DNA of 64,000 bases, taken from contig CAWJKZ010000013.1 in assembly GCA_963843575.1 (NCBI GenBank), positions 32,001 to 96,000 on the forward strand. The letters are read 5' to 3'. The notes under the pieces are model-generated. The model was not told the DNA's origin. It searched no databases and worked only from the letters and a program-made list of their open reading frames with translations. A program made the translations under genes and the position numbers. This document shows, in pieces, positions 36,405-50,084 of the stretch (positions within the stretch are counted from its first letter, which is position 1; each line of letters begins with the position of its first letter). This DNA comes from an uncultured Acidobacteriota bacterium. Lineage in GTDB: Bacteria; Acidobacteriota; UBA6911.

Positions 36405-36986
36405 ATGGGGGCAGTGCAACAAACCGTTCTTTATGAACAGGCGATGGACCCGCACCTGCTCGAGGAGATCTGCTCCACGCCCGGGGGCGCCAAGATAAAG
36501 GACTGCATCCAGTGCGGCACCTGCAGCGGATCGTGCCCGGTGTCCTGGGCGATGGAGGAGACGCCGCGTCAGATCTTCGCGATGATCCGGGCCGGAATGA
36601 AGGAAAGACTCCTCGACACTCTTACGATCTGGACGTGCGCGTCCTGCTACCAGTGCGCGAGCCGCTGCCCGCAGCAGATCAAGATCACCGACGTCATGTA
36701 TGCGCTCAAGCGCATGGCCATCCGCGAAAACCGCACCCGCAGCAAGAAAGCCCGGCTGTTCGCCCAGGAATTCGCGGCGGTGGTCAACCGGCACGGGCGG
36801 GGCCGAGAGACGGAGCTGATGGTGCGCTACATGCTGGCCACCAACCCTCTCGGCGCGTTGTCCGCGGCCCCTGTCGGCATCAACCTGTTCACGCGCGGCC
36901 GGCTTCCGCTCGGCGGGGGATCGGTGCGCGACATCGCAGGCCTCCGGAAGATCATCGCCAAGGCCGGTGAACTGGGAGGTGAGTGA
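36405..36986 (+). CDS. hdrC: heterodisulfide reductase subunit C
   Basis: AGGAGG RBS; CIQCGTCSGSCP and WTCASCYQCASRCP. Confidence 0.9.
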   Translation: MGAVQQTVLYEQAMDPHLLEEICSTPGGAKIKDCIQCGTCSGSCPVSWAMEETPRQIFAMIRAGMKERLLDTLTIWTCASCYQCASRCPQQIKITDVMYALKRMAIRENRTRSKKARLFAQEFAAVVNRHGRGRETELMVRYMLATNPLGALSAAPVGINLFTRGRLPLGGGSVRDIAGLRKIIAKAGELGGE

Positions 36987-37864
36987 TGCGGTACGCGTAT
37001 TTTCCGGGTTGTTCGCTCGATTCCACGGCACGACCTTACGGCGAGTCGGTTGAGGCGGTCGCTTCCGCACTGGGCATGGAACTGGTCGAGGTAGACGACT
37101 GGAACTGTTGCGGCGCGACCGCCTACATGTGCGTAAACGAGATCCTCTCGTTCAGCCTGAACGCCCGCAACCTGTGCCAGGCCTCCAAGACGGGAGGGCC
37201 GCTGGTCACGCCGTGCAGCGCCTGCTTTACGAACCTGCGCAAGACCGAGAAGTATCTGGCAGACTTCCCGGACATAAAGAAGAAGGTCGACGCTGCCCTG
37301 GCCGAGGCGGGTTTGCGCTACGACGGCGGCATCGAGACGAAGCACCTGTTACAGGTGGTCGTCGAGGATGTCGGGCTGGAGCGCCTGAAGAGCGCGGTGA
37401 AAAAGCCGCTAGCAGGGTTGCGGGTCGCACCGTACTACGGCTGCCAGATCGCCAGGCCGTACGGCATCGAAGACGACAGCGACGACCCGACGATGCTCGA
37501 TCGCCTCCTGGCCGGGCTTGGGGCGACGCCCACCCACTTCCCGATGAAGACGGTCTGCTGCGGCGGCTCCCTCATCGGAACCCGCGAGGAAGTCGCCCTG
37601 CGGCTCTGCCGTAACCTGCTCATGTGCGCCCAGCAGGATGCGGCCGACTGTATCGCGGTCGCCTGCCCCGTGTGTCAACTCAACCTGGACGCCTACCAGG
37701 CGGCGATCAACAAGTCCTACGGGACGGACTTCAACATCCCTGTCGTCTATTTCACCCAGCTGATCGGTCTCGCGCTGGGGCTCGAGTCCGACGCCCTCGG
37801 ACTGCAGCGCTGCATCGTGCCGGCGACGAGAGTTTTCGCCCGGTTTGCACAGGAGACGCGATGA
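36983..37864 (+). CDS. hdrB: heterodisulfide reductase subunit B
   Basis: YFPGCSL, DWNCCGA, YYGCQ, CCGG, CPVCQLNLD (two CCG domains). Confidence 0.93.
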   Translation: MMRYAYFPGCSLDSTARPYGESVEAVASALGMELVEVDDWNCCGATAYMCVNEILSFSLNARNLCQASKTGGPLVTPCSACFTNLRKTEKYLADFPDIKKKVDAALAEAGLRYDGGIETKHLLQVVVEDVGLERLKSAVKKPLAGLRVAPYYGCQIARPYGIEDDSDDPTMLDRLLAGLGATPTHFPMKTVCCGGSLIGTREEVALRLCRNLLMCAQQDAADCIAVACPVCQLNLDAYQAAINKSYGTDFNIPVVYFTQLIGLALGLESDALGLQRCIVPATRVFARFAQETR

Positions 37865-38724
37865 ACACCAAAATCGGGGTTTATATCTGCCACTGCGGCA
37901 CCAATATTTCCGGCAAGGTAAACGTCTCCGAAGTCACGGAGTTCGCCCGGACGCTCCCCGCCGTAGCGGTCGCGCGGGAGTACAAGTTCATGTGCTCGGA
38001 TCCCGGCCAGATCCTCATACAGGACGATATCAAGAACGCGGGGCTGGACCGGGTCGTGGTGGCTTCCTGCTCCCCTCTGATGCACGAGCCGACCTTCCGA
38101 GGCGCCTGCGAGCGCGCGGACCTCAATCGCTATCTCTTCCAGATGGCGAACATCCGCGAGCATTGTTCCTGGGTGACGGTCGACCCGAATGCGGCGACCG
38201 ACAAGGCGAAGGCACTGGTGGCGGCCGCGGTCGCAAAGGCGTCGGCGCTGGACCCGCTCCCGCGCAAGACGGTCCCAGTCAAAAATGCCGCCGTGGTGGT
38301 TGGGGGCGGCATCGCGGGGATACAGGCGGCACTCGACATCGCGGATTCCGGGCGCACCGTGTACCTGATCGAGCGCGAGCCCTCGATCGGGGGGCACATG
38401 GCCCGCTTCGACAAGACCTTCCCGACGCTCGACTGCGCGGCGTGCATCCTCACGCCGAAGATGGTGCAGGTGGGCAAGCACCCCAACATCAAGCTGATGC
38501 CCTCGACCGAGGTGGAGGAGGTCAGCGGCTTTGTCGGCAACTTCCGGGTGAAGGTCCGGCACAAGGCGACCTACGTGGACAAGGACAAGTGTTCGGGGTG
38601 CGGCATGTGCTGGGAGTCCTGCCCGGCCCGGAAGATCCCTGCGCGCCGGGTGATTCGAAAGGGAAAGCTCATGATCGGTCGGAGCGCCAACGGGAACGGT
38701 TTCCACGGCGGCAGCGCGAAATGA
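37861..38724 (+). CDS. hdrA: heterodisulfide reductase subunit A, N-terminal half (split HdrA)
   Basis: IGVYICHCGTNI, VVASCSPLMHEPTF, NIREHCSWV, GGGIAG, DKTFPTLDCAAC, then a single CxxCxxCxxxCP and stop. Confidence 0.88.
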   Translation: MNTKIGVYICHCGTNISGKVNVSEVTEFARTLPAVAVAREYKFMCSDPGQILIQDDIKNAGLDRVVVASCSPLMHEPTFRGACERADLNRYLFQMANIREHCSWVTVDPNAATDKAKALVAAAVAKASALDPLPRKTVPVKNAAVVVGGGIAGIQAALDIADSGRTVYLIEREPSIGGHMARFDKTFPTLDCAACILTPKMVQVGKHPNIKLMPSTEVEEVSGFVGNFRVKVRHKATYVDKDKCSGCGMCWESCPARKIPARRVIRKGKLMIGRSANGNGFHGGSAK

Positions 38725-39083
38725 ACTCACTGCCACAACCGCGGACCCTGACCCTGGCCCAGGTACGGGACATGCTGAACGCCCAGGCCTTCACCGAACT
38801 CGATCTCTCGGCTCCTGTCCAGCGGGTGGGCGCGGCGGATCTGATGAGCGACGTGCTCGCTCTGGGCTGGCCGGGGATGCTCCTGCTGACGGGCCTGGTC
38901 GGCCCCCAGGTGATTCGGACTGCCATCGTGGCGGACCTGTGCGGGGTCGTTTTCGTGCGCGGGAAAAAGCCTAGCGATGACATCCTGGCACTGGCGTTGA
39001 AGGCCCGAATCCCGGTCCTGGGGACGGCACTGACGATGTTCGAGGCGGCGGGGGTGCTCTACGGAGCAATCGGCGGCAGGTGA
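38721..39083 (+). CDS. DRTGG-domain protein
   Basis: AADLMSDVLA, LLLTGL, QVIRTA, VVFVRGKKP. Confidence 0.85.
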   Translation: MNSLPQPRTLTLAQVRDMLNAQAFTELDLSAPVQRVGAADLMSDVLALGWPGMLLLTGLVGPQVIRTAIVADLCGVVFVRGKKPSDDILALALKARIPVLGTALTMFEAAGVLYGAIGGR

Positions 39084-39086
39084 GCG

Positions 39087-39518
39087 ATGGAGCGCGAGGA
39101 GTTCGAGTCCAGCTACCAGGTCGCCGGCCGCGACTTCACGAACGCCGGGAGGGTCTCGACCGACATTAAGGACACGCTCAAGCGCCTCGGCGTCGCCCCG
39201 TCGATCATGCGCAGGGTCGCGATCGCCTGCTACGAGGCGGAGATGAACATAGTCATGTACGCCCATCGCGGGCGGATGGCCCTCCGGGTCAGCCCCCGGG
39301 TGGTGACCATCGAAGCCGCCGACGAAGGACCGGGCATCCAGGACATTGAGCTTGCGATGCAGGAGGGTTATTCGACGGCGACGCCGGAGATGAGAGAAAT
39401 GGGGTTCGGCGCCGGGATGGGGCTGCCGAACATCCGCAGAAACAGCGACGAACTCGAGATCAGTTCCACCGTCGGCCGGGGCACACGGCTGGTGATCCGC
39501 GTGCTCCAATCCGCGTGA
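39087..39518 (+). CDS. anti-sigma factor / Ser-Thr kinase (RsbT-like HATPase)
   Basis: YEAEMNIV, DEGPGI, EGYSTA, GFGAGMGLPNI. Confidence 0.9.
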   Translation: MEREEFESSYQVAGRDFTNAGRVSTDIKDTLKRLGVAPSIMRRVAIACYEAEMNIVMYAHRGRMALRVSPRVVTIEAADEGPGIQDIELAMQEGYSTATPEMREMGFGAGMGLPNIRRNSDELEISSTVGRGTRLVIRVLQSA

Positions 39519-40852
39519 GGAAGAACGTGGCCGCTCAGTACCATCATTCGTTGCGGTTCGATTCCGAGAATTGCGACGGCTGCATGTCCTGTCTGCGTGC
39601 CTGCCCGACGGCAGCGGTGCGGGTGCGCAACGGCCACGCGGTCAAGCTGGCGGACCGGTGCATCGATTGCGGCGAGTGCATCCGGGTCTGCCCCCGCGGC
39701 GCCATCGTTCCCCTCACAAACCACATGGCCGACCTGTCGAAGTTCGAGTGCACGGTGGCCGTGCCCTCGCCGGCCCTCTACGCCCAGTTCGACGCCGATG
39801 TGTCGCCGGGCGCCATCTTCGCCGCCCTCCGCCAGTGCGGCTTTGACGATGTGGAGTGCCTGTCGCCGGCCTGCGATTCCGTCAGCGCGGCCACCGAGAT
39901 GTACCTCAACGCGTACCGGGGCCAGTATCCTCTTATCTCGTCGTTCTGCCCGACCGTGGTCCGGCTAGTCCAGGTGAAGTATCCCGAACTGGTGGACCAA
40001 CTGCTGCCGGTACTGGCTCCGCGCGAGGTTTCCGCCCGGGACGCCAAGGCCCGCAAATCGGCCGAGACCGGCCTTGCCCCCGATCAGATTGGCGCGGTGT
40101 ACATCACCCCGTGCCCCGGCAAGATGGTGGCCATCCTGGAACACCCCGGCATGCAGAGGTCATATCTTGACACCGCCATCTCCATCAGCGACCTCTTCCA
40201 GACCCTTGCGGCGGCAGTCGCCGGTATCGACGATTCCGAGGCGTACCGGCAGGCCGCCGAAACCGCCTCGGGTGTGAGCTGGGCCTTCATGGGCGGTTTG
40301 CCGCGTTCGCTCCCCGCCGAGAACACCCTCGCGGTCGCCGGCCTCCCCAACGTGATCCGCATCCTGGACGACGTCGAAAAGGGGAAGCTTCGGAGGTACT
40401 CGTTCATCGACTGCCACGCCTGCGCCGAGGGGTGTGTGGGCGGATGCCTCACGGTGGAAAACCCGTACGTGGCGCGCGGCAAGATGATCATGTTGTGGCA
40501 GACACTCCCTGCCGGCCCGGCGCTTGACCGCGACGACGTGGAGCGGCGCTACCGCGAAGGCGCGTTCCTGATGGACGAGCCCCTGGCGAGCCGCCCGCTC
40601 AGGCCGCTCGACGAGGACATCTCGCGTGCCATCGCCAAGATGAAGCAGAGGGACCGGATCGTGGCGACCCTGCCCGGGATCGACTGCGGCGCCTGCGGCG
40701 CTCCGTCTTGCCGGGCCTTTGCCGAGGACGTGGTCCTCGGGGACGCCGGGGAAGAGTCGTGCGTCTTCTTTCTCCAGCAGGAGCTCACCGACAGGATCGA
40801 AGGGCTCGCACGCCTCGTCCAGGGCAAGCGCCCCGATGGAGGCCTGAAATGA
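39515..40852 (+). CDS. [FeFe]-hydrogenase-like Fe-S protein (degenerate H-cluster motifs, C-terminal FeS domain)
   Basis: Two N-terminal ferredoxin motifs; SSFCP / TPCPGK / CAEGCVGG; LPGIDCGACGAPSC. Confidence 0.85.
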   Translation: MRKNVAAQYHHSLRFDSENCDGCMSCLRACPTAAVRVRNGHAVKLADRCIDCGECIRVCPRGAIVPLTNHMADLSKFECTVAVPSPALYAQFDADVSPGAIFAALRQCGFDDVECLSPACDSVSAATEMYLNAYRGQYPLISSFCPTVVRLVQVKYPELVDQLLPVLAPREVSARDAKARKSAETGLAPDQIGAVYITPCPGKMVAILEHPGMQRSYLDTAISISDLFQTLAAAVAGIDDSEAYRQAAETASGVSWAFMGGLPRSLPAENTLAVAGLPNVIRILDDVEKGKLRRYSFIDCHACAEGCVGGCLTVENPYVARGKMIMLWQTLPAGPALDRDDVERRYREGAFLMDEPLASRPLRPLDEDISRAIAKMKQRDRIVATLPGIDCGACGAPSCRAFAEDVVLGDAGEESCVFFLQQELTDRIEGLARLVQGKRPDGGLK

Positions 40853-41202
40853 ACGTCGAACAGCTTGCAGCGCAGCTCGGTGCGGAAGTGGTATGCGGGG
40901 GGGCTCGGGCCGCGAGCCGCGAGATCCTCGGCGGCTACGCCTCGGACCTGCTTTCGGACGTGATGGCCAATAGCTGCGAAGGGGACCTCTGGGTGACGCT
41001 GCAGCGGCACGTCAATGTCGTGGCGGTGGCCCAGCTCAAAGGGCTGGCCGGGATCCTCCTGGTGAACGGGCGCCGGCCCGAGCCGGCCGCAGCCGAACGC
41101 GCGGACGTGGAGGGCATTCCGATCGTCACCACGGGATTGCCGGCGTTTGAGGTGATCGGCCGCCTTTGCGGGATGGGCATCGGGGGAAGGAGGTCGGGCT
41201 GA
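40849..41202 (+). CDS. DRTGG-domain protein
   Basis: GGYASDLLSDVMAN, WVTLQRHVNVVAVA. Confidence 0.85.
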   Translation: MNVEQLAAQLGAEVVCGGARAASREILGGYASDLLSDVMANSCEGDLWVTLQRHVNVVAVAQLKGLAGILLVNGRRPEPAAAERADVEGIPIVTTGLPAFEVIGRLCGMGIGGRRSG

Positions 41203-41204
41203 GA

Positions 41205-42482
41205 GTGTTCATGCTGGACACCCACGTGCACACGTGCCTGTCGCCCTGCGCGGAACTGGAGATGCACCCGGCCGCCGTGGCCGGGGCGGCGGTCTCCTCC
41301 GGGCTGGATGCCGTCGCGGTGTGCGATCACAACTCGGCCGAGAATGCGGCCGCCGTGGCGCGCGCCGCGCACAGGTCCGGCCTCGCGGTGATTCCCGGCA
41401 TGGAGATCACCAGCGCCGAGGAGGTTCACGTCCTCGGCCTCTGTCCGGACCTCGAGGCGGCGCTGGAGCTGCAGGCACGTGTTTACCGCTGTCTGCCCGG
41501 CCGCAACGACGCGCGCGCATTCGGCATGCAGGTGGTGGCCAACGAAGACGAGGAGGTGCTCGGCTTCAACGACCACCTCCTGGCCGGCGCGACCACGATG
41601 GCCGTCGACGCCGTGGTCGACGCGATTCACCGGGTGGACGGCCTCGCCGTGGCGTCGCACGTCGACCGCGAGGCTTTTGGAATCTTCGGGCAGCTCGGCA
41701 TGATCCCGGCCGACCTCCGGTTGGATGCCCTGGAGGTCTCGCGACGCACCCCCCTGCCGTCCGCGCGTGCGTCGTTCGCCCCCGGCGGGGAGTGGACTAT
41801 CCTGTGCGCCTCCGATGCGCACGAGCCGAAGGATGTCGGGCAGGCGGCCACGTACATGCTGCTGCAGGAGCCGACCGTCGCGGAACTGCGCCGCGCTTTC
41901 GCCGGCGAAGGGGGACGGACGGTGCTCGGCGGAGGAATGCCGATGGAGGACTTGGCACTGCACATCCTGGACATCGCACGCAACAGCATCGATGCGGGGG
42001 CGACGGAGATCGAGATCGTCATCGAGGAAGACCTCGCCGGCAACCGGCTCACGATCGAGCTGCGCGACAACGGGCGCGGCATGAGCCCGGAAACACTCTC
42101 CCGGGCCGCGGATCCCTTCTTTACCACGCGCACCACGCGCCGGGTCGGCATGGGGCTGCCGCTGCTCGCCCAGGCCGCCCGCAGCGCCGGAGGCGGGCTC
42201 TCGCTGGAGTCGCAACCCGGGCGCGGGACGAGCGTGCGCGCGGTTTTCGAGCACGGCCACATCGATAGGGCACCCCTGGGAGACCTGGAAACAACCCTGA
42301 TGGTGCTGCTCGCAGGTCATTCGGAGATCGACATCAGGTTCCGGCACAGAGTAGACCACGCGGAGTACGAGCTCGACTCCGCCGACCTGCGCGCTGCCGG
42401 GATCGACGTGGGCTCCCCCGAGGGCCTGATGGCGGTGCGCGGCGTCATACGACAGGGAGAGAGATCGTTGTCCAGGAGCTGA
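41205..42482 (+). CDS. PHP phosphoesterase fused to HATPase (kinase-like) domain
   Basis: DTHVHTCLSPC, CDHNS, SDAH, then in frame MEDLALHILDIARNS...DNGRGM...DPFFTTRTTRRVGMG; start uncertain. Confidence 0.8.
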   Translation: MFMLDTHVHTCLSPCAELEMHPAAVAGAAVSSGLDAVAVCDHNSAENAAAVARAAHRSGLAVIPGMEITSAEEVHVLGLCPDLEAALELQARVYRCLPGRNDARAFGMQVVANEDEEVLGFNDHLLAGATTMAVDAVVDAIHRVDGLAVASHVDREAFGIFGQLGMIPADLRLDALEVSRRTPLPSARASFAPGGEWTILCASDAHEPKDVGQAATYMLLQEPTVAELRRAFAGEGGRTVLGGGMPMEDLALHILDIARNSIDAGATEIEIVIEEDLAGNRLTIELRDNGRGMSPETLSRAADPFFTTRTTRRVGMGLPLLAQAARSAGGGLSLESQPGRGTSVRAVFEHGHIDRAPLGDLETTLMVLLAGHSEIDIRFRHRVDHAEYELDSADLRAAGIDVGSPEGLMAVRGVIRQGERSLSRS

Positions 42483-42539
42483 ACCGGGCGTGGTCGAGGG
42501 AACGCGAGACGCGGACAGGAACTGACTTTGGGAGGAAAC

Positions 42540-43028
42540 ATGGTCGACGTCACAAGGGTTCGGGAAATCGTCGGTCGTCACGGCGGTAAACGGGAGCACA
42601 TGATCGCCATCCTGCTCGACTGCCAGGAAGAATACTGCTATCTGCCGCGGGAGGTTCTCGAGGAGCTGTCGGTCCAGATCGACACGCCGCTGACCTCCGT
42701 GCTTTCGATCGCCACGTTCTTCCGTGCCTTCAGCCTCAAGCCGGTGGGCCGCCACCAGGTCCACGTCTGCATGGGCACCGCCTGCAACATCCAGGGGGGG
42801 CCCCGGCTGGTCGAGGCGCTCGAACGCGAGCTGAAGATCAAGAAGGGCGAAACCACGCCGGACATGCAGTTCAGCCTCGACACGGTCAACTGTGTCGGGT
42901 GCTGCGGGCTCGCCCCGGTCATCACCGTCGGACAGGACGTGCACGGAAAACTGAAGCAGTCTTCCATCCCGAGGATTCTGAAGAAGTACAGGTCAAAGGA
43001 GGCAAGCGATGCCGAGACTGTCCATTGA
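42540..43028 (+). CDS. nuoE: NuoE/HydC-like [2Fe-2S] subunit
   Basis: GGAGG RBS; VCMGTAC ... NCVGCCGLAP. Confidence 0.88.
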   Translation: MVDVTRVREIVGRHGGKREHMIAILLDCQEEYCYLPREVLEELSVQIDTPLTSVLSIATFFRAFSLKPVGRHQVHVCMGTACNIQGGPRLVEALERELKIKKGETTPDMQFSLDTVNCVGCCGLAPVITVGQDVHGKLKQSSIPRILKKYRSKEASDAETVH

Positions 43029-43392
43029 GGATCTCAAGCGGATACGCGACGAGTCGCGGCACATCCTCACGCTCAGGTCGGGGGAGGCCCGGGCGAAGGT
43101 GACGGTCCACATGGGTACCTGCGGCATTTCGGCCGGTGCGCGCGACGTCATGGGCGCCCTGCTGAAGGCCATCGAGGAACGCAAGATCACCGACGTGATC
43201 GTCACTACGTCGGGTTGTGCCGGGCTCTGCAGCCGGGAGCCGATGGCGACCGTGGAGCTCGCCGGCCAGCCACCGGTCAAGTACGTCGACCTCAAACCGG
43301 ACCGCATGATCCGCATACTGCAGGAGCACGTGCTCGAGGGCAGAATCGTCACCGACTTCGCGCTGGCCAGGGGCTGTGAGACGACCGGCTAG
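43009..43392 (+). CDS. thioredoxin-like [2Fe-2S] ferredoxin (HydD-like)
   Basis: VHMGTCGISAGA, SGCAGLCSREP. Confidence 0.85.
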   Translation: MPRLSIEDLKRIRDESRHILTLRSGEARAKVTVHMGTCGISAGARDVMGALLKAIEERKITDVIVTTSGCAGLCSREPMATVELAGQPPVKYVDLKPDRMIRILQEHVLEGRIVTDFALARGCETTG

Positions 43393-43469
43393 CCTTCCGG
43401 GACGCCCCGAAAACATCGGAAGGCGCGCAGCGCTTTGATCCGCACGTTTTTGCTGGAGGGAAGGGAGAG

Positions 43470-45309
43470 ATGGCATTCCGCACAAATGTTCTGGTTTGCG
43501 CAGGGACCGGGTGCGTGTCCGGGAACTCCTTTGCGACGGCCCGGGCGCTGGAGACCGAGGTGAAGAAACGGGGCCTGGGAGACGAAATCCAGGTGATACG
43601 CACAGGGTGCCAGGGCTTCTGCGCCGAGGGACCCATCGTGATTGTGCAGCCGGACGGCGTCTTCTACTGCGGCGTGGCCGCCAAGGACGCGCCGTACCTG
43701 GTGGAGGAACATTTCCTGAAAGGCCGGCCGGTGCAGAGGCTGATGTACTCGCCGCCGAAGGAAAAGAGCCCCATCCCGGCGCTCAAGGAGATTCCCTTCT
43801 TCGCCAAGCAGAAGCTGGTCGTGCTGCGCAACCGCGGGGCCATCGACCCGGAGCGCATCGACGACTACATCGCCGTGGACGGTTACACCGCACTGGTCAA
43901 AGCCCTGAGAGATGACGCCCGAGCAGATCATCCGGGAGATCAAGAAGTCGGGGCTGCGCGGGCGCGGCGGCGGCGGCTTTCCGACCGGCATCAAGTGGGA
44001 GACCTGCCGCCACGCAGCGAAACAGCGCAACGAGGAACCCGTCGTCGTCTGCAACGCCGACGAAGGCGACCCCGGGGCCTTCATGGACCGCAGCATCATC
44101 GAGAGCGACCCGCACTCCGTCCTCGAGGGGATGATCATCGGCGCGCGGGCGATCGGCTGCAAAGAGGGCTTCGTCTACATCCGGCACGAGTATCCCATTG
44201 CGCGCGAACGCCTGCTCAAGGCCATCGAGCAGGCGCGCGACTACGGCCTCCTCGGCAAGGGCATCCTGGGCTCCGAAATGGATTTCGACGTCGAGATCGT
44301 CCAGGGGGCGGGCGCATTCGTCTGCGGCGAATCGACGGCTCTCATGGCTTCGCTGGAGGGGAAGGCCGGCGAACCGCGCGCCAAGTACATCCACACGGTG
44401 GAGTACGGGTACAAGAACCGGCCGACGAACCTGAACAACGTCGAGACCTGGGCCAACGTCCCGCTGATCATCAGCCGCGGCGCCGAGTGGTTCGCGTCGA
44501 TGGGGACCGGCGAGGTCAGCGAGAATCCCTGGAACGGAAGCAGCGGGACCAAGGTGTTCTCGATGGTCGGCAAGGTGAACAACACCGGGCTGATCGAGGT
44601 CCCGATGGGCCTGACGCTGCGCGAGATCGTCTTCGACATTGGCGGCGGCATCGCGGGCGGCAGCAAATTCAAGGCGGTGCAGACCGGTGGTCCTTCCGGA
44701 GGGTGCCTCCCGGAAGAGCTGCTGGACATGCCGGTCGACTTCGACAGCCTGACCGAAGCGGGCTCGATGATGGGGTCCGGGGGCATGATCGTCATGGACG
44801 ACCAGACCTGCATGGTCGACGTGGCGCGCTACTTCATCGCCTTCCTGACCGAGGAGTCGTGCGGCAAGTGCGTGCCGTGCCGTGAGGGGTTGCGCACCTC
44901 GCTCGACACCCTCACCCGCATCTCGGAAGGCAAGGGGACCGAACACGACATCGAGCTCCTGTACGAGATCGGCGCCGTCATGCAGGACTGCTGTCTGTGC
45001 GCGCTGGGCACGTCCGCCCCGAACCCGGTGCTGTCGACGCTGCGCTATTTCAAGGAGGAGTACGACGCCCACATCAAGGACCACGTCTGCCCGGCGGGCG
45101 TCTGCAAGGACCTGATCGAGTACAGGATCGACGCGGAGAAGTGCGACGGGTGCCACGCCTGTGTGAAAGGCTGCTCCCCCGCGGCCATCGGGGGCGCGGT
45201 CAAGGAGAAGCACTCCATCGACGGGGACAAGTGCATCAAGTGCGGCGCCTGCCTTGAGGTGTGCAAGCGCGACGCGATCGTGAAAGTTCCGAGGAGTCAT
45301 GCGGCATGA
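43470..45309 (+). CDS. nuoF: NuoF/HydB-like FMN/NADH subunit (one frameshift near 43908, likely a sequencing error)
   Basis: N-terminal [76 protein letters not shown], two C-terminal ferredoxin motifs. Confidence 0.88.
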
Positions 45310-47064
45310 AGACCATCAAAGTGAAGATCAACGGGATCGAAGCCGAGGCTGCGGACCGCACCCCCATCCTGAACATCGCCGAAAAACTGGGGATCAAGAT
45401 CCCCACGCTGTGCCACCACCCGATCCTGGAACCCTATGGCGTGTGCCGCGTGTGCACCGTCGAGGTCCGCTCGGGCAAACGCGTCCGGATGGTGACGGCC
45501 TGCAATTACCCGGCGACGAACGGCATCGAGGTGCTGACCGATTCCGAGCGGGTCCGGCGCGACCGTAAGCTGATCATCGAGTGGCTGATGTCGCGCTGCG
45601 GGCACGTGCCGGTGATCGAGCAGCTCGCGGCCGAGTACGGCATCACGGAACCGCGGTTCGGACGCGGCGACGACGACTGCATCCTGTGCGGGCTCTGCGT
45701 GCGCGTCTGCTCCGACGTCGTCGGCGCCAATGTCCTCGGGTTCTTCAACCGCGGCACGACTCGCGAGGTCTCGACCGCCTACGGCGAGACCTCGGACAAA
45801 TGCATCGCCTGCGGGGCGTGTGCCCACGTCTGCCCCACAGGCGCAATCCGGATCGAGGACGACGCGGCCCTGGTCCAGAAAGAGCTCCCGATGGGGCCGC
45901 TCACCCCGATCGGCATCCCGTTCATGCAGGCGGTGCCGCACCAGCCGGTGATCGACCGCGATTCGTGCATTCACTTCAAGACCGGCGCGTGCAAGGTGTG
46001 CGAAAAGGTCTGCGAGGTGAAGGCGATCGACCACAGCCAGCAGGACCGCGTCGAGGAACTCGAGGTCGGGGCCGTCGTGCTGGCCACCGGCTTCCAGACC
46101 TTCGACGCCAGGAAGATCCCCGAGTACGGCTACGGCAGGTTCGACAACGTCCTGACCGGCATGGAGTTCGAAAAAATGAACAGCGCTTCGGGCTCGACCG
46201 GCGGCCGGATCCTCATGGCCGACGGCAAGGCCCCGAAGTCGGTGGGGATCATTCACTGCGTCGGCAGCCGCGACCAGCGCCACAACAAGCACTGCTCGCG
46301 CGTCTGCTGCATGTACGCGCTGAAGTTCGCACACCTGATCAAGGAGAAGACCGAGGCCGAGGTCTACAACTTCTACATCGACATGCGCTGCTTCGGAAAG
46401 GGCTACGAGGAGTTCTATCACCGCCTGCTGGAGGAGGGAGTGCGGTTCATCCGGGGCCGGGCCGCGTCGGTCACGGACTTCCCGTTGAACGAACACGAGC
46501 GCGGCAAGCTGATCATCCGCGTCGAGGACACGCTGCTCGGCCAGGTGCGGCGCATCCCGGTCGACATGGTCGTGCTGGCCACAGGGCTCGAAGCCGCAGA
46601 AGGCGCGGCCGAACTCGCCCGCACCTTCCACATCAGCTGCCAGCGGCGGTTTCTTCACCGAGCGGCACCCGAAGCTCGCCCCGGTGTCGACGGCCACGGA
46701 CGGGATCTACATCGCCGGCGCGTGCCAGGGGCCGAAGGACATCCCCGACACGGTCGCACAGGCCTCCGCGGCGGCGTCGCAGGTGCAGGCGCTGATGGCC
46801 AAGGGGGAGATCGAGGTCGAGTCCGCCACGAGCATCGTGGATGCCGAGAAGTGCGCCGGGTGCAGGATCTGCAACACCCTCTGCTCGCTCTCGGCCATCA
46901 GCTTCGACGAGGAGAGGCACGTGTCGGTGATCAACGACGTGCTCTGCAAAGGGTGCGGCACCTGCGCTGCGGCATGCCCGAGCGCTGCCATCATCGCGCG
47001 GCACTTCACCGACGAGCAGCTGTTCGCCGAAATAGAAGGAGCTCTGTATGACGTTCGAGCCTAA
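45306..47064 (+). CDS. hdrA: fusion of NuoG/HydA-N-like FeS domain with the C-terminal half of HdrA (frameshift near 46645)
   Basis: IPTLCHH..CRVC..C ([2Fe-2S]) and two ferredoxin motifs, then [36 protein letters not shown]; after the shift [17 protein letters not shown] and a C-terminal 2x[4Fe-4S]. Confidence 0.85.
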
Positions 47065-47485
47065 GATCGTGGGCATTCTCTGCAACTGGTGCTCGTACAC
47101 GGGCGCGGACCTGGCCGGAACCGCCCGCATCAAGTACGCCCCGAACGTGCGCATGATGCGTGTCATGTGCTCCGGCCGAGTCGACCCGACCTTCGTGCTG
47201 AAGGCGTTCGCCGACGGGGCCGACGGGGTGCTCGTCGCCGGGTGCCACCCGGGAGACTGCCACTACATCGACGGGAACTACAAGACCCTGCGCCGCATGG
47301 CGCTGCTGAAGAAGCTGCTCGCCGACTACGGTATCGAGCCGGAACGGTTCCGGCTGGAGTGGGTGTCCGCCTCGGAGGGCGACCGCTGGGCCGAGGTCGT
47401 CAACGGCATCACCGAAGACGTCCGCAGGCTCGGTCCGGCGAAGTTCAAGTCGAAAGGGAAAAAACGAGCCGCCCCGGCGGCCTAG
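47048..47485 (+). CDS. mvhD: methyl-viologen-reducing hydrogenase delta subunit
   Basis: CNWCSYTGADLAG, VMCSGRVDP, GCHPGDCHY, WVSASEG. Confidence 0.95.
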   Translation: MTFEPKIVGILCNWCSYTGADLAGTARIKYAPNVRMMRVMCSGRVDPTFVLKAFADGADGVLVAGCHPGDCHYIDGNYKTLRRMALLKKLLADYGIEPERFRLEWVSASEGDRWAEVVNGITEDVRRLGPAKFKSKGKKRAAPAA

Positions 47486-47670: not shown

Positions 47671-48627
47671 ATGGCGAAACTGAAATTGGCGTCCTACTGG
47701 GCGGCCGCATGCGGGGGATGCGACGTGGGGATCCTGGACCTGCACGAGAAGATCCTGGACCTCGCGGCAGCCGCGGACATCGTCTTCTGGCCCATCGCGC
47801 TCGATTTCAAGTACGAGGATGTCGAGGCCATGCCGGACGGCCACATCGACGTGACCCTGTTTCACGGGGCCGTCCGCAACTCCGAGAACGAGCATCTGGC
47901 GCGGCTGCTGCGCGCCAAGTCCAAGGTCCTGGTCGCATTCGGGACCTGCGCCCACATCGGCGGCATACCGGGCCTGGCCAACCTGTTCGACAAGAAGTCG
48001 ATCTTTCAGCGTGTCTACCACGACTCCCCCTCGACGGTGAACCCCGACGGCGTCGAACCCCAGCCTCGCTCCAGGGTGCCGGAAGGTGAAATTACGATCC
48101 CGGAGTTCTACGACACGGTCCGGTCCCTGGACCAGGTGGTCGACGTCGAGTACTATGTCCCCGGCTGCCCGCCGACCCCGAAGCAGATCTGGAAGGTGGT
48201 GGAGACGATCGTGTCGGGGCAACTGCCACCGCCCGGCGCCGTCATCGGCGCGTCGGAAAAGACGCAGTGCGACGAGTGCACGCGCAAGAAGAGCGAAAAG
48301 AAGATCACCGGATTCAAACGGATCGCGACCGCACAGCCCGATCCGGACACCTGTTTTCTCGACCAGGGTTTCCTGTGCGTCGGCCCCGTGACCCGGGGCG
48401 GATGCGACACCCGCTGCCAGCTGTCGGGAGTCGCCTGCCGCGGCTGCTATGGCCCGCCGCCGGGAGTGCTCGACCAGGGAGCAAAGGCGATCTCGGCCAT
48501 CGCCTCCGTGATCGAGGCCAAGGACGAGGCTGAGGTAGAACGCATAATCGCAGAGATCCCCGACCCGCTCCGGAGCTTTAACCGGTTCGGCATCCCGGGA
48601 TCCTTATTGGTGAGGAAAGCATTATGA
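47671..48627 (+). CDS. mvhG: group 3c [NiFe]-hydrogenase small subunit
   Basis: GGAGG RBS; AACGGC, AFGTCA, PGCPP, CVGPVTRGGC, CRGCYGP. Confidence 0.92.
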   Translation: MAKLKLASYWAAACGGCDVGILDLHEKILDLAAAADIVFWPIALDFKYEDVEAMPDGHIDVTLFHGAVRNSENEHLARLLRAKSKVLVAFGTCAHIGGIPGLANLFDKKSIFQRVYHDSPSTVNPDGVEPQPRSRVPEGEITIPEFYDTVRSLDQVVDVEYYVPGCPPTPKQIWKVVETIVSGQLPPPGAVIGASEKTQCDECTRKKSEKKITGFKRIATAQPDPDTCFLDQGFLCVGPVTRGGCDTRCQLSGVACRGCYGPPPGVLDQGAKAISAIASVIEAKDEAEVERIIAEIPDPLRSFNRFGIPGSLLVRKAL

Positions 48628-50084
48628 AGCGCATTTCGATTGATCCCATCACGCGGCTGGAGGGGCACGGCAAGATCGACATCTTCCTGGCCGACGACGG
48701 CAGCGTCGCAAACTGCTACTTCCAGGTGCCCGAGCTGCGCGGCTTCGAGAAGTTCGTCGAAGGCATGCCGGCCGAGGAAGTCCCGCGCGTGGTGTCGCGC
48801 ATCTGCGGCGTCTGACCGGCCGCACACCATTTGGCCTCGGGTAAGGCCATAGATGCAGTCTACAAGGTCGATCCGCCGGTCACGGCGAAGAAGCTGCGCG
48901 AGCTCTACTACAGCGCTCACTTCATGCACAGCCACATAGCCCACTTCTACGCGCTCGCCGCCCCCGACTTCGTCGTGGGCCCGGACGCCGATCCCGCGAA
49001 GCGGAACATCCTCGGCATCGTGGAAAAAGTCGGGGTCCCCGTGGCGGCCGAAGTCCTCAAACACCGCGCCATCGCGCAGGACATCCAGATCATGGTGGGG
49101 GGCAGGTCGACCCACCCCGTCTGGACTCTGCCGGGCGGCGTGTCCAAGGGGATCACCGACGCTCAGCGGCTGGAGATCGTCGAGAAGGCGAAATCGTGCG
49201 TGGAGTTCGCCAGGTTCTCCCTGAAGCTGTTCGAGGACATCGTACTCCAGAACAAGACCTACCTCGACCTGGTCCTCTCGGACATCTACGAGCTCGACTC
49301 GTACTGGATCGGGACCGTCGACGAGAAAAACCGGGTGAACTTCTACCAGGGCGAGCACCGCGTCGTGGATCAGGACGCCAAGGAAGTCTTCCGGTACAAG
49401 GACCACGAGTACCTCGATTTCATCTCGGAACGGGTCGAGCAGTTCAGCTACCTGAAGTTCCCCTTCCTGAAGAAGATCGGCTGGAAGGGGCTCGTAGCCG
49501 GACGTGACTCGGGCGTGTACCAGGCGACCCCGCTCTCGCGGCTCAACGCGGCCGACGGGATGGCGACGCCGCTGGCGCAGGCCGAGTACGAGAAGATGTA
49601 CAAAACCCTCGGCGGCAAACCTGTGAAAAAGCTCCTGGCCACGCACTGGGCGCGGCTGGTCGAGTTGCTGTACGCGGCCGAGCGGATGCTCGAGCTGGCC
49701 CAGGACCCGCAGGTCGCGTCGACCGACATCCGCACCCTCCCGACGGCGGTCCCGGAAGAGGGCATCGGGATCGTCGAGGCGCCGCGTGGAATCCTGACCC
49801 ATCACTACAAGACAGACCGGAACGGGCTCATCACCGAAGCGAACCTCGTCGTGGGAACGACGAATAATCATGCGCCGATCTCGCTGGCGATCAAGCAGGC
49901 CGCCCAGCGGCTCATCCAGCCCGGAAAGGCGATCGGGCAGGATCTCCTCAACATGGTGGAGATGGCGTTCCGGATCTTTGACCCGTGCTTCTCGTGCGCG
50001 ACCCACTCCCTGCCGGGGGAAATGCCCCTCGTCGTGGAGGTCCACGCCGCCGACGGCACCGTGGTCCACCGCGTTTCGCGGTAG
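48624..50084 (+). CDS. mvhA: group 3c [NiFe]-hydrogenase large subunit with in-frame UGA (putative selenocysteine) in the L1 motif
   Basis: IDPITRLEGH, LRGFEKF, RICGV-TGA(48813-48815)-PAAHH continues in frame to EAPRG and RIFDPCFSCATH plus a cleavable tail. Confidence 0.9.
48828..48855 (+). promoter_or_regulatory. putative bacterial SECIS hairpin
   Basis: CATTTGGCCT-CGGGTA-AGGCCA(TA)GATG. The stem begins 12 nt and the G-containing loop 22 nt after the UGA. Confidence 0.7.

Follow-up and report, generated by a model that had tools for sequence, protein, structure and literature searches.

Flavin-based electron bifurcation is the way in which many anaerobes obtain low-potential reductant. Here we describe a candidate bifurcating system in a window of 64,000 nucleotides (the whole stretch of DNA that was analysed, G000:C13:32001-96000) from the draft genome of an uncultured Acidobacteriota bacterium (lineage UBA6911; assembly GCA_963843575.1, contig CAWJKZ010000013.1; 6.68 Mb in 27 contigs, completeness 88%). 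The system is encoded by 17 collinear genes on the plus strand, at 36.4-50.1 kb of the window, and its central element is HdrA, the subunit of heterodisulfide reductase, which is encoded in two pieces. We consider it probable, from sequence comparison and structural modelling, that this "Bfu-in-HdrA" operon encodes an enzyme driven by H2 and a disulfide, in which the split HdrA is reassembled and its inserted ferredoxin domain is wired to a Bfu-type core.

The subunits and the HdrA domains are those of the MvhAGD-HdrABC complex of methanogens (5ODC, 7BKB, 8RVU), and hdrC, hdrB, mvhD, mvhG and mvhA flank the split gene here as well. Solved HdrA chains align nearly full-length with the N-terminal piece in the window, HdrA-N (E 2e-101), and with the intact C-terminal fusion protein of a relative (locus L023; E 8e-118). 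Our locus differs from the methanogen complex in that HdrA is cut in its inserted ferredoxin domain, the C-terminal half is joined to a BfuA-type iron-sulfur (FeS) module, NuoE and NuoF are encoded between the halves, and the hosts are bacteria. The inserted ferredoxin domain is described as the exit of HdrA to free ferredoxin (PMC9012536; bioRxiv 10.64898/2026.04.10.717634).

The second known relative is the Bfu family (HydABC, NiFe-HydABCSL, NfnABC, Wor-Bfu; PMC9304861), which is defined by its BfuBC core. Its BfuA conducts electrons from or to a third partner, the core deals with NAD(H) and ferredoxin jointly, and a Type 2 BfuA with only three clusters has been distinguished (PMC9304861). 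The locus shares with this family a full-length BfuB with both extra FeS domains, a BfuC and a three-cluster BfuA module (BfuA'). In contrast to the known members, however, BfuA' has here neither a catalytic domain nor a separate partner of the listed kinds, and runs straight into half an HdrA; no BfuA type of this kind is named in the available text of PMC9304861, supplementary tables aside.

The closest whole known system is the class II benzoyl-CoA reductase BamBCDEFGHI, in which a HydBC/Bfu-type module (BamGHI), the HdrA-type BamE, an MvhD-like adaptor and an HdrBC-like subunit are found in one complex (bioRxiv 10.64898/2026.04.10.717634). There BamGHI, which includes the BfuA homologue BamI, feeds BamE through a C-terminal ferredoxin domain and the MvhD-like BamF (the donor port), and the insert leads to the tungsten subunits; the preprint calls the coexistence of HdrA-type and Bfu-type modules in one enzyme previously unreported. 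Our locus would be the mirror image of Bam, with Bfu fused at the insert and a [NiFe] hydrogenase on the MvhD (donor) side. Moreover, HdrA is split here, whereas in Bam it is duplicated and fused, and tungsten subunits are lacking: among the 17 genes from hdrC to mvhA, Pfam and NCBIfam scans gave no match to a family of the aldehyde-oxidoreductase type. To our knowledge, Bam is the only described enzyme that unites HdrA-type and Bfu-type modules; the present layout would add another, found much more widely and with the modules joined at a different port.

A nucleotide-linked (NfnB-like) module in the same inserted ferredoxin domain is also known from HdrA9-11 of ANME-1 (PMC9012536), but there it is one in-frame domain of a single polypeptide, whereas here it is a multi-gene set within a split protein. 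No account of a split HdrA that has NuoEF between its halves was found in the available parts of the literature consulted (including PMC7325909, PMC9304861, PMC7509429, PMC10689502, PMC11406978, PMC9012536, PMC7382037, PMC6085437 and the Bam preprint), a scope outside which lie the supplementary tables and the review of Appel et al. 2021, either of which could hold the layout. The parts of the system belong to known families, and it is their split and fused arrangement that appears to be widespread and unnamed.

HdrA is predicted to be made as two polypeptides

Gene families were assigned by profile searches of the window proteins against NCBIfam and Pfam. HdrA-N (37861-38724, 287 aa; all genes described here lie on the plus strand) corresponds to positions 1-256 of the 777 positions of the NCBIfam HdrA2 profile and to residues 5-258 of the solved HdrA 5ODC_A. 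It holds the N-terminal Cys-cluster domain, the first part of the TrxR-like FAD domain with its GxGxxG, the LDCAAC motif and the first Cys motif of the insert, and it stops after this single CxxCxxCxxxCP and a short tail, exactly as an earlier note on this DNA had read it. Its TGA stop overlaps the ATG of the next gene as ATGA (38721-38724), which the same note had pointed out.

The rest of HdrA follows after a gap of about 6.6 kb, within the fusion gene bfuA'::hdrA-C (45303-47064). Residues 3-81 of the fusion protein match Fer2_4 and residues 123-183 a 4Fe-4S dicluster domain (both Pfam), providing a [2Fe-2S] and a 2x[4Fe-4S] module; residues 200-446 then correspond to HdrA2 profile positions 268-507, and a second frame (46648-47061) to positions 511-640, together comprising the second Cys motif of the insert, the remainder of the FAD domain and the C-terminal 2x[4Fe-4S] ferredoxin domain. 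The earlier note had placed the missing half at this distance behind a NuoG/HydA-type FeS domain, and profile positions 268-640 bear this out, with the correction that the gene has a frameshift near 46640. The intact fusion protein of a relative covers residues ~268-652 of 5ODC_A, so that the alignment of both halves to a solved HdrA, which had been proposed as a check, gives the same break point.

These alignments put the cut inside the inserted ferredoxin domain, with one Cys motif on either side, and show that HdrA has lost hardly any sequence. As judged from the genes, HdrA is made as two polypeptides, HdrA-N and BfuA'-HdrA-C. Each of them carries part of the FAD-binding fold and one of the insert's two Cys motifs, and the C-terminal half is covalently continuous with a three-cluster BfuA module. 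The bit scores of the three pieces (371.9, 272.4 and 151.4) fall short of the 1100 required for HdrA as one polypeptide, and no second HdrA was found elsewhere in the draft genome.

A Bfu-type core is encoded between the halves

Between hdrA-N and the fusion gene lie nuoE/bfuC (42528-43028), coding for a [2Fe-2S] thioredoxin-like subunit (PF01257, E 1.5e-45; HoxE and NuoE models also match), and nuoF/bfuB (43470-45309), coding for the FMN- and NAD(H)-binding subunit with an N-terminal [2Fe-2S] and a C-terminal 2x[4Fe-4S] domain. In the window nuoF is read in two frames, with a frameshift near 43909: the first (43470-43910) matches a 2Fe-2S ferredoxin model and the second (43912-45306) nuoF_fam (E 5e-131). 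An ortholog of this NuoF aligns over residues 3-606 of its 613 to residues 4-596 of the 597 residues of 7t2r_B, the BfuB of the bifurcating NiFe-HydABCSL (E 6e-228), and also aligns with HydB of bifurcating [FeFe] hydrogenases and NfnB of NfnABC. These alignments take in the N- and C-terminal FeS domains, which plain NuoF is without, and the locus thus has a BfuB with an FMN/NAD site and both extra FeS domains, and a BfuC encoded alongside.

The first 186 residues of the fusion protein match the 247-aa, BfuA-like ("NuoG-like") chain 9mqx_A (E 5e-41) and the N-termini of HydA proteins, and BfuA' matches the [FeFe] hydrogenase A6 model (E 2.4e-37). The three invariant cluster motifs of BfuA' fit the Type 2 BfuA of PMC9304861. 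The earlier note had spoken of an NADH module; an NAD(H)-linked module it appears to be, although not a plain diaphorase but what looks like a full Bfu-type core for NADH and ferredoxin. Genes for group C3 sensory and group A3 bifurcating [FeFe] hydrogenases are usually clustered (PMC11406978), and the presence of a HydS-like gene at our locus fits this pattern. We infer that the inserted genes derive from a HydABC-type cluster.

Both halves of HdrA are conserved

We aligned 20 HdrA-N sequences (set A1) and 33 sequences of the fusion protein (set A2, a family of ~585 aa). In HdrA-N, the Cys residues of the N-terminal cluster, GxGxxG, LDCAAC and all four Cys of motif 1 are invariant, and in the fusion protein every Cys ligand is invariant, including those of the three BfuA' cluster motifs. 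Beyond the CP of motif 1, HdrA-N continues into a tail whose first ~20 residues follow the pattern P..RVIRKGKLVIG, in which Pro is invariant and Arg, Ile and Gly are nearly so, and which is variable only further on. The earlier note had described a non-HdrA tail; a tail is indeed present, but it is not mere junk, since its first ~20 residues are conserved across phyla.

The ratio of nonsynonymous to synonymous substitution rates (dN/dS) of HdrA-N was 0.03-0.09 in the three of six pairs with a computable dS (the rest had a saturated dS), and the 20-codon tail had a dN of 0.10-0.26 against a dS of 1.4-2.0 where computable. HdrA-N is under purifying selection. Together with the invariant Cys residues and the conserved tail, this agrees with the notion that the gene was domesticated rather than broken.

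HdrA-N is a short, separate open reading frame (ORF), and in the locus survey described below it went unscored at 9 of 80 loci, most of them with contig ends or broken frames. One could accordingly regard it as a functionless leftover, with BfuA'-HdrA-C working alone. The FAD-binding GxGxxG, however, is on HdrA-N and not on HdrA-C; with its Cys ligands invariant in 20 sequences, its low dN/dS and its fusion to NuoE in six loci, HdrA-N is most improbably such a remnant.

Modelling places the two halves together

A complex of a relative's HdrA-N (289 aa, alignment A1), its fusion protein (585 aa, alignment A2) and FAD was modelled, and reached an ipSAE of 0.87, against 0.00 for the best of three controls. 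Of 80 solved complexes 58 reach the pass mark used, as do 2 of 110 mismatched pairs; this calibration is only rough for a run that had its own alignments and a ligand. At least 90% of the contacts agreed between model runs, and the pLDDT of the partner was at least 88. On the HdrA-N side the modelled interface comprises residues 243-268 and 270-275 (motif 1 and the tail), and on the fusion side residues 208-222, 229-243 (motif 2) and 124-175 (the BfuA dicluster domain). Motif 1 itself (243-268) lies against residues 208-243, which hold motif 2, and against residues 160-175 of the dicluster domain. The check by an AlphaFold-Multimer-type model that the earlier note had suggested thus places the halves together, with the qualification that the score may reflect likeness to solved HdrA.

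The clusters would be assembled in trans, and the proposed electron path would run through them. In six loci HdrA-N and NuoE form one chain, a physical link to the inserted module. A different pairing, in cis, between motif b of BfuA' and HdrA motif 2 was considered as HMMER had placed motif b on HdrA motif 1; it is unlikely, given that motifs a and b make up a full BfuA dicluster domain (9mqx_A 5-187), and it is disfavoured by the model too, in which the HdrA-N motif is set against motif 2.

The split and the fusion recur in many genomes

A protein search with the 447 in-frame residues of the fusion protein returned, among the best 120 clusters listed, 114 of 581-603 aa with 98-100% query cover and 57-100% identity, the other six being shorter. 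Across 41 related genomes, the full fusion was present in six at 81-85% identity and in one at 52%, and others held pieces at contig ends; one unpublished genome of the set (G034) gave only a weak match, which is not drawn on here. When the regions of eight relatives were compared, all 17 genes were found in the same order and with intact frames in four, which come from four other genera of the family; of the other four, one (G001, of the same genus) has broken frames, two run off the ends of their contigs, and one is a compact form that lacks the regulators.

We further surveyed the layout by a scan of species-representative genomes, which yielded 80 loci, all in metagenome-assembled genomes (MAGs). 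The split with a separate HdrA-N was seen in 21 of these (L064 among them), and an in-frame HdrA-N::NuoE fusion in six, labelled as Planctomycetota, one "archaeon" and one Deltaproteobacteria. In nine more the fusion gene was present with HdrA-N not scored, mostly at contig ends or in broken frames. The canonical intact hdrA, in an hdrCBA-mvhDGA cluster, occupied 32 loci; three had long forms (two HdrA of ~1120 aa with an NfnB/GltD-like insert and one 777-aa single chain), seven were partial or broken, and two were not classed. By MAG labels, which are loose (one "Clostridia" MAG is near-identical to an Aminicenantes one), the split form extends over about ten phyla, including Acidobacteriota (several orders), Aminicenantes, Eisenbacteria, Neomarinimicrobiota, Sumerlaeota, Planctomycetota, Nitrospirales, Desulfobacterales and others.

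Two unrelated loci might have been joined by the assembler at similar ferredoxin-motif sequences, for such Cys motifs are repetitive and the assembly is of draft quality. Independent assemblies from several studies and phyla, however, share these junctions and this gene order, which already refutes such a chimera and leaves it a negligible probability. Misassembly, which the earlier note had named among the findings that would overturn its reading, was thus not upheld, and its search for other genomes with the same split and fusion is answered by the 17-gene order in four other genera and by the fusion in MAGs of about ten labelled phyla.

The surveyed loci vary in several respects. The HdrA-N::NuoE ORFs (L054, at L054:3371-4672, L056, L058, L063, L067 and L068) are 423-437 aa long. 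The place of the regulator genes varies and some loci have none; in loci labelled Planctomycetota they follow nuoF and precede the fusion gene, and L054, L056 and L058 (Planctomycetota or Planctomycetaceae labels), which have kept them, show them there and not ahead of nuoE. At L072:2820-5150 (Syntrophobacteraceae label), a single HdrA of 777 aa has both the HdrA-N tail motif and a BfuA-type dicluster between its halves, and no nuoEF was found near it on its short contig; given its place among split forms on the tree, this HdrA may derive from one of them by re-fusion. Finally, bacterial HdrA proteins of 1120-1136 aa (L070:7712-11077, L083:6981-10340 and L064:11984-15391) have an NfnB/GltD-like insertion that replaces the second half of the insert, at the site of the split.

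Frameshifts in the window copy

Compared with four relatives, the fusion gene of the window has one extra base near 46640, and the 596-aa ORF listed at 45261-47051 is out of frame past about residue 447. In nuoF, two nucleotides are missing near 43909 relative to four relatives, one of them of the same genus. Past both frameshifts the protein sequence still has 82-93% identity to the relatives. These frameshifts, like the in-frame TGA of mvhA discussed below, had gone unmentioned in the earlier reading of the window.

We hold it very likely that the two indels are assembly errors. Contigs from four public sequencing runs (runs with a share of 0.05-0.09 of the sampled words) gave patchy cover by relatives, and none of them spans 43905-43912 or 46640-46650. 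Elsewhere in the genome, selA (G000:C8:2469-3523) is broken into at least five overlapping pieces in different frames, which suggests a high rate of indel errors in parts of the assembly.

Were both frameshifts real, the operon of this genome would be a recent pseudogene and its enzyme lost, as the loss of 2 nt in nuoF and the gain of 1 nt in the fusion gene, in frames that relatives keep, could be taken to mean. We regard this as improbable, given that the downstream protein is 82-93% identical to relatives without further damage and that frame breaks occur elsewhere too (the selA pieces), yet selB, tRNA-Sec and the TGA-bearing mvhA are retained. The many breaks in the equivalent locus of the same-genus genome G001 and the state of the assembly (27 contigs, 88% complete) speak against a pseudogene as well.

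Electron flow, direction and history

In the mechanism that we consider probable, an hdrCBA-mvhDGA cluster, with a group-3c-type [NiFe] hydrogenase and a heterodisulfide reductase, would have taken up the front part of a HydABC/Bfu-type cluster, namely the regulators, nuoE/bfuC, the small ferredoxin gene, nuoF/bfuB and the FeS N-terminus of bfuA, and this part would have landed in the inserted-ferredoxin region of hdrA. The two resulting chains would rebuild the FAD domain, each giving one Cys motif to a composite 2x[4Fe-4S] insert. From the insert, the three BfuA' clusters would lead on to the BfuBC core (FMN, NAD(H) and the ferredoxin site), with MvhD and MvhAG holding the H2 port and HdrBC the disulfide port. 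Free ferredoxin would be reduced or oxidised only at BfuB, jointly with NAD(H). That Bfu and HdrA modules are able to work in one complex is known from Bam (bioRxiv 10.64898/2026.04.10.717634).

The overall reaction would be oxidation of H2 with reduction of a disulfide, by which low-potential electrons pass into Bfu and reduce NAD+ and ferredoxin together. This H2-oxidising, disulfide-driven direction is favoured because every port keeps its canonical role. The same architecture could also run in reverse and evolve H2: BfuBC would confurcate NADH and reduced ferredoxin as in HydABC, and electrons would travel by way of BfuA', the HdrA clusters and FAD to MvhD/MvhAG in place of an H-cluster, with HdrBC as a side branch or redox valve. 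The inserted genes do resemble those of bifurcating hydrogenases (BfuA' the A6 model, E 2.4e-37, and BfuB the HydB chains), a HydS-like sensor and regulators accompany them as C3 and A3 genes usually cluster (PMC11406978), and hydrogenase-free forms exist in which Bfu must be the input or the sole nucleotide port. But hdrB and hdrC are kept in every complete locus, pointing to an active disulfide branch, and by our own thermodynamic reasoning a low-potential arm leading in and an MvhD arm leading out would need a second donor of higher potential from HdrBC, or else would waste the bifurcating site. We consider the reverse direction a serious but less likely rival.

Several observations weigh against the H2- and disulfide-driven reading or narrow it. 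Three loci with Desulfobacterales or Deltaproteobacteria labels (L057, L059 and L068) have hdrA-N, nuoEF, the fusion gene and mvhD without mvhG and mvhA, so that H2 is not always the partner; the HdrA-N match of L057 covers query residues 143-255 only. The high score of the modelled complex may mirror its likeness to solved HdrA structures rather than binding. Real frameshifts in nuoF and in the fusion gene would make the window copy inactive. Finally, on a quick tree of HdrA-C (71 rows) the split forms need seven changes, and their monophyly costs 87 log-likelihood units and is rejected by the approximately unbiased (AU) test (p-AU 0.0044; the group was set by architecture but was named after the tree was seen). 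As the split forms are not one clade, their history is more complex than a single insertion.

At L057, L059 and L068, additional HdrA-like genes and a second hdrCB pair stand where mvhG and mvhA would follow. These loci show the Bfu/split-HdrA module in more than one setting.

A single insertion event for all split forms was dropped as an explanation in view of the AU test (p 0.0044). Junctions are of two types. In loci with Acidobacteriota- and Aminicenantes-like labels the linker is short and the RVIRKGKLVIG tail is on HdrA-N; in those labelled Planctomycetota, Desulfobacterales and Myxococcota the fusion protein has kept the canonical SEFDEGL...IY.PF, and HdrA-N forms one chain with NuoE in most cases. 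Possible histories include repeated capture at one hot spot, lateral spread by recombination in flanking hdrA sequence, and re-fusions such as the 777-aa form. The idea of a hot spot is backed by the NfnB-type inserts at the same site in ANME-1 (PMC9012536) and in the bacterial MAGs found here.

A bolder version of the H2- and disulfide-driven enzyme, which we put forward only tentatively, is a tandem, two-stage bifurcating hydrogenase: the HdrA flavin would split the electrons of H2 between the disulfide and a very low-potential arm that feeds a second (Bfu) site and not free ferredoxin, the layout, a gene set with hdrA sequence on both sides, would have passed from phylum to phylum, and the insert would serve generally as a place for partner modules to dock and to be inserted. 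If this is true, disulfide reduction would pay for both reduced carriers at H2 levels too low for enzymes of the HydABC type.

Gene content of the locus

The genes run in the order hdrC, hdrB, hdrA-N, five regulatory-type genes, nuoE, a small Cys-rich ferredoxin-like gene, nuoF, bfuA'::hdrA-C, mvhD, mvhG and mvhA. Upstream of hdrA-N lie hdrC (36405-36986), for an HdrC-like FeS subunit (TIGR03290 CoB_CoM_SS_C, E 2.7e-23, under cut-off; syntenic in relatives), and hdrB (36983-37864), for a CCG-domain subunit (TIGR03288 CoB_CoM_SS_B, E 7.6e-57, under cut-off). Downstream of the fusion gene are mvhD (47048-47485), for the [2Fe-2S] adaptor, which matches HdrA2 profile positions 647-775 (E 1.3e-54) and, under its cut-off, the VhuD model (E 2.3e-38); mvhG (47671-48627), for the [NiFe] hydrogenase small subunit (VhuG model, E 2.1e-68, under cut-off); and mvhA (48624-50084), for the large subunit (VhuA model, E 9.6e-89, under cut-off). 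As the best models of these three are VhuA, VhuG and VhuD, each under its curated cut-off, and hdr synteny is present, they resemble a group 3c [NiFe] hydrogenase (MvhAGD).

The five regulatory-type genes are those of a DRTGG-domain protein (38721-39083; PF07085, E 2.9e-4, under cut-off; syntenic), a histidine-kinase-like ATPase (39087-39518; PF13581, E 4.2e-9), a HydS-like [FeFe]-hydrogenase homologue and putative H2 sensor (39515-40852; PF02906 Fe_hyd_lg_C, E 9.2e-28, with a C-terminal PF04060 FeS domain, E 3.5e-13), which NCBIfam [FeFe] hydrogenase models match under cut-off, a second DRTGG-domain protein (40849-41202; PF07085, E 3.3e-6) and a PHP-domain/HATPase protein (41166-42482; PF02518, E 7.5e-17, and PF02811, E 1.8e-6). 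The HydS-like gene, the two DRTGG proteins, the kinase-like ATPase and the PHP/HATPase protein travel together in most split loci, and judging by their families they look like an H2-sensing set kept beside the [NiFe] enzyme. Between nuoE and nuoF, a small protein with Cys motifs (43009-43392), presumably HndB-like by its motifs, is kept in synteny at 76-91% identity; Pfam and NCBIfam scans gave no match for it.

A putative selenocysteine in MvhA

The start of mvhA (48624) overlaps the stop of mvhG as ATGA, and its frame contains a TGA (48813-48815, residue 64) at the position of a Ni-ligand cysteine (RICGV*PAAHH). In 77 locus rows, some of which are duplicates of one genome, the codon at this site was TGC in 45, TGT in 19 and TGA in 13, and never TAA or TAG. 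In the genome, selB scores over its cut-off, tRNA-Sec is present and selA is fragmented. The TGA probably encodes the selenocysteine of a CxxU motif, a residue expected to bridge Ni and Fe. According to PMC13582414, a single Group 3 sequence with an N-terminal CxxU had been reported. As for a selenocysteine insertion sequence (SECIS), the 68 nt past the TGA fold no better than shuffled sequences (z -0.76), a result that neither shows nor excludes the element.

Implications

The record titles of the MAGs with this layout point to lineages of soil, wetland, groundwater and sediment, including Acidobacteriota, Aminicenantes and Planctomycetota. In public databases the fusion proteins are named only "heterodisulfide reductase subunit A" or "4Fe-4S binding protein", and with such names metabolic reconstructions probably misread them. 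The layout offers a natural test of whether the inserted ferredoxin domain of HdrA is its low-potential exit, and, if the modelled assembly is right, would illustrate how two polypeptides can together form a 2x[4Fe-4S] fold and a flavin site. For the organisms that have it, it is a candidate route from H2 to NADH and reduced ferredoxin.

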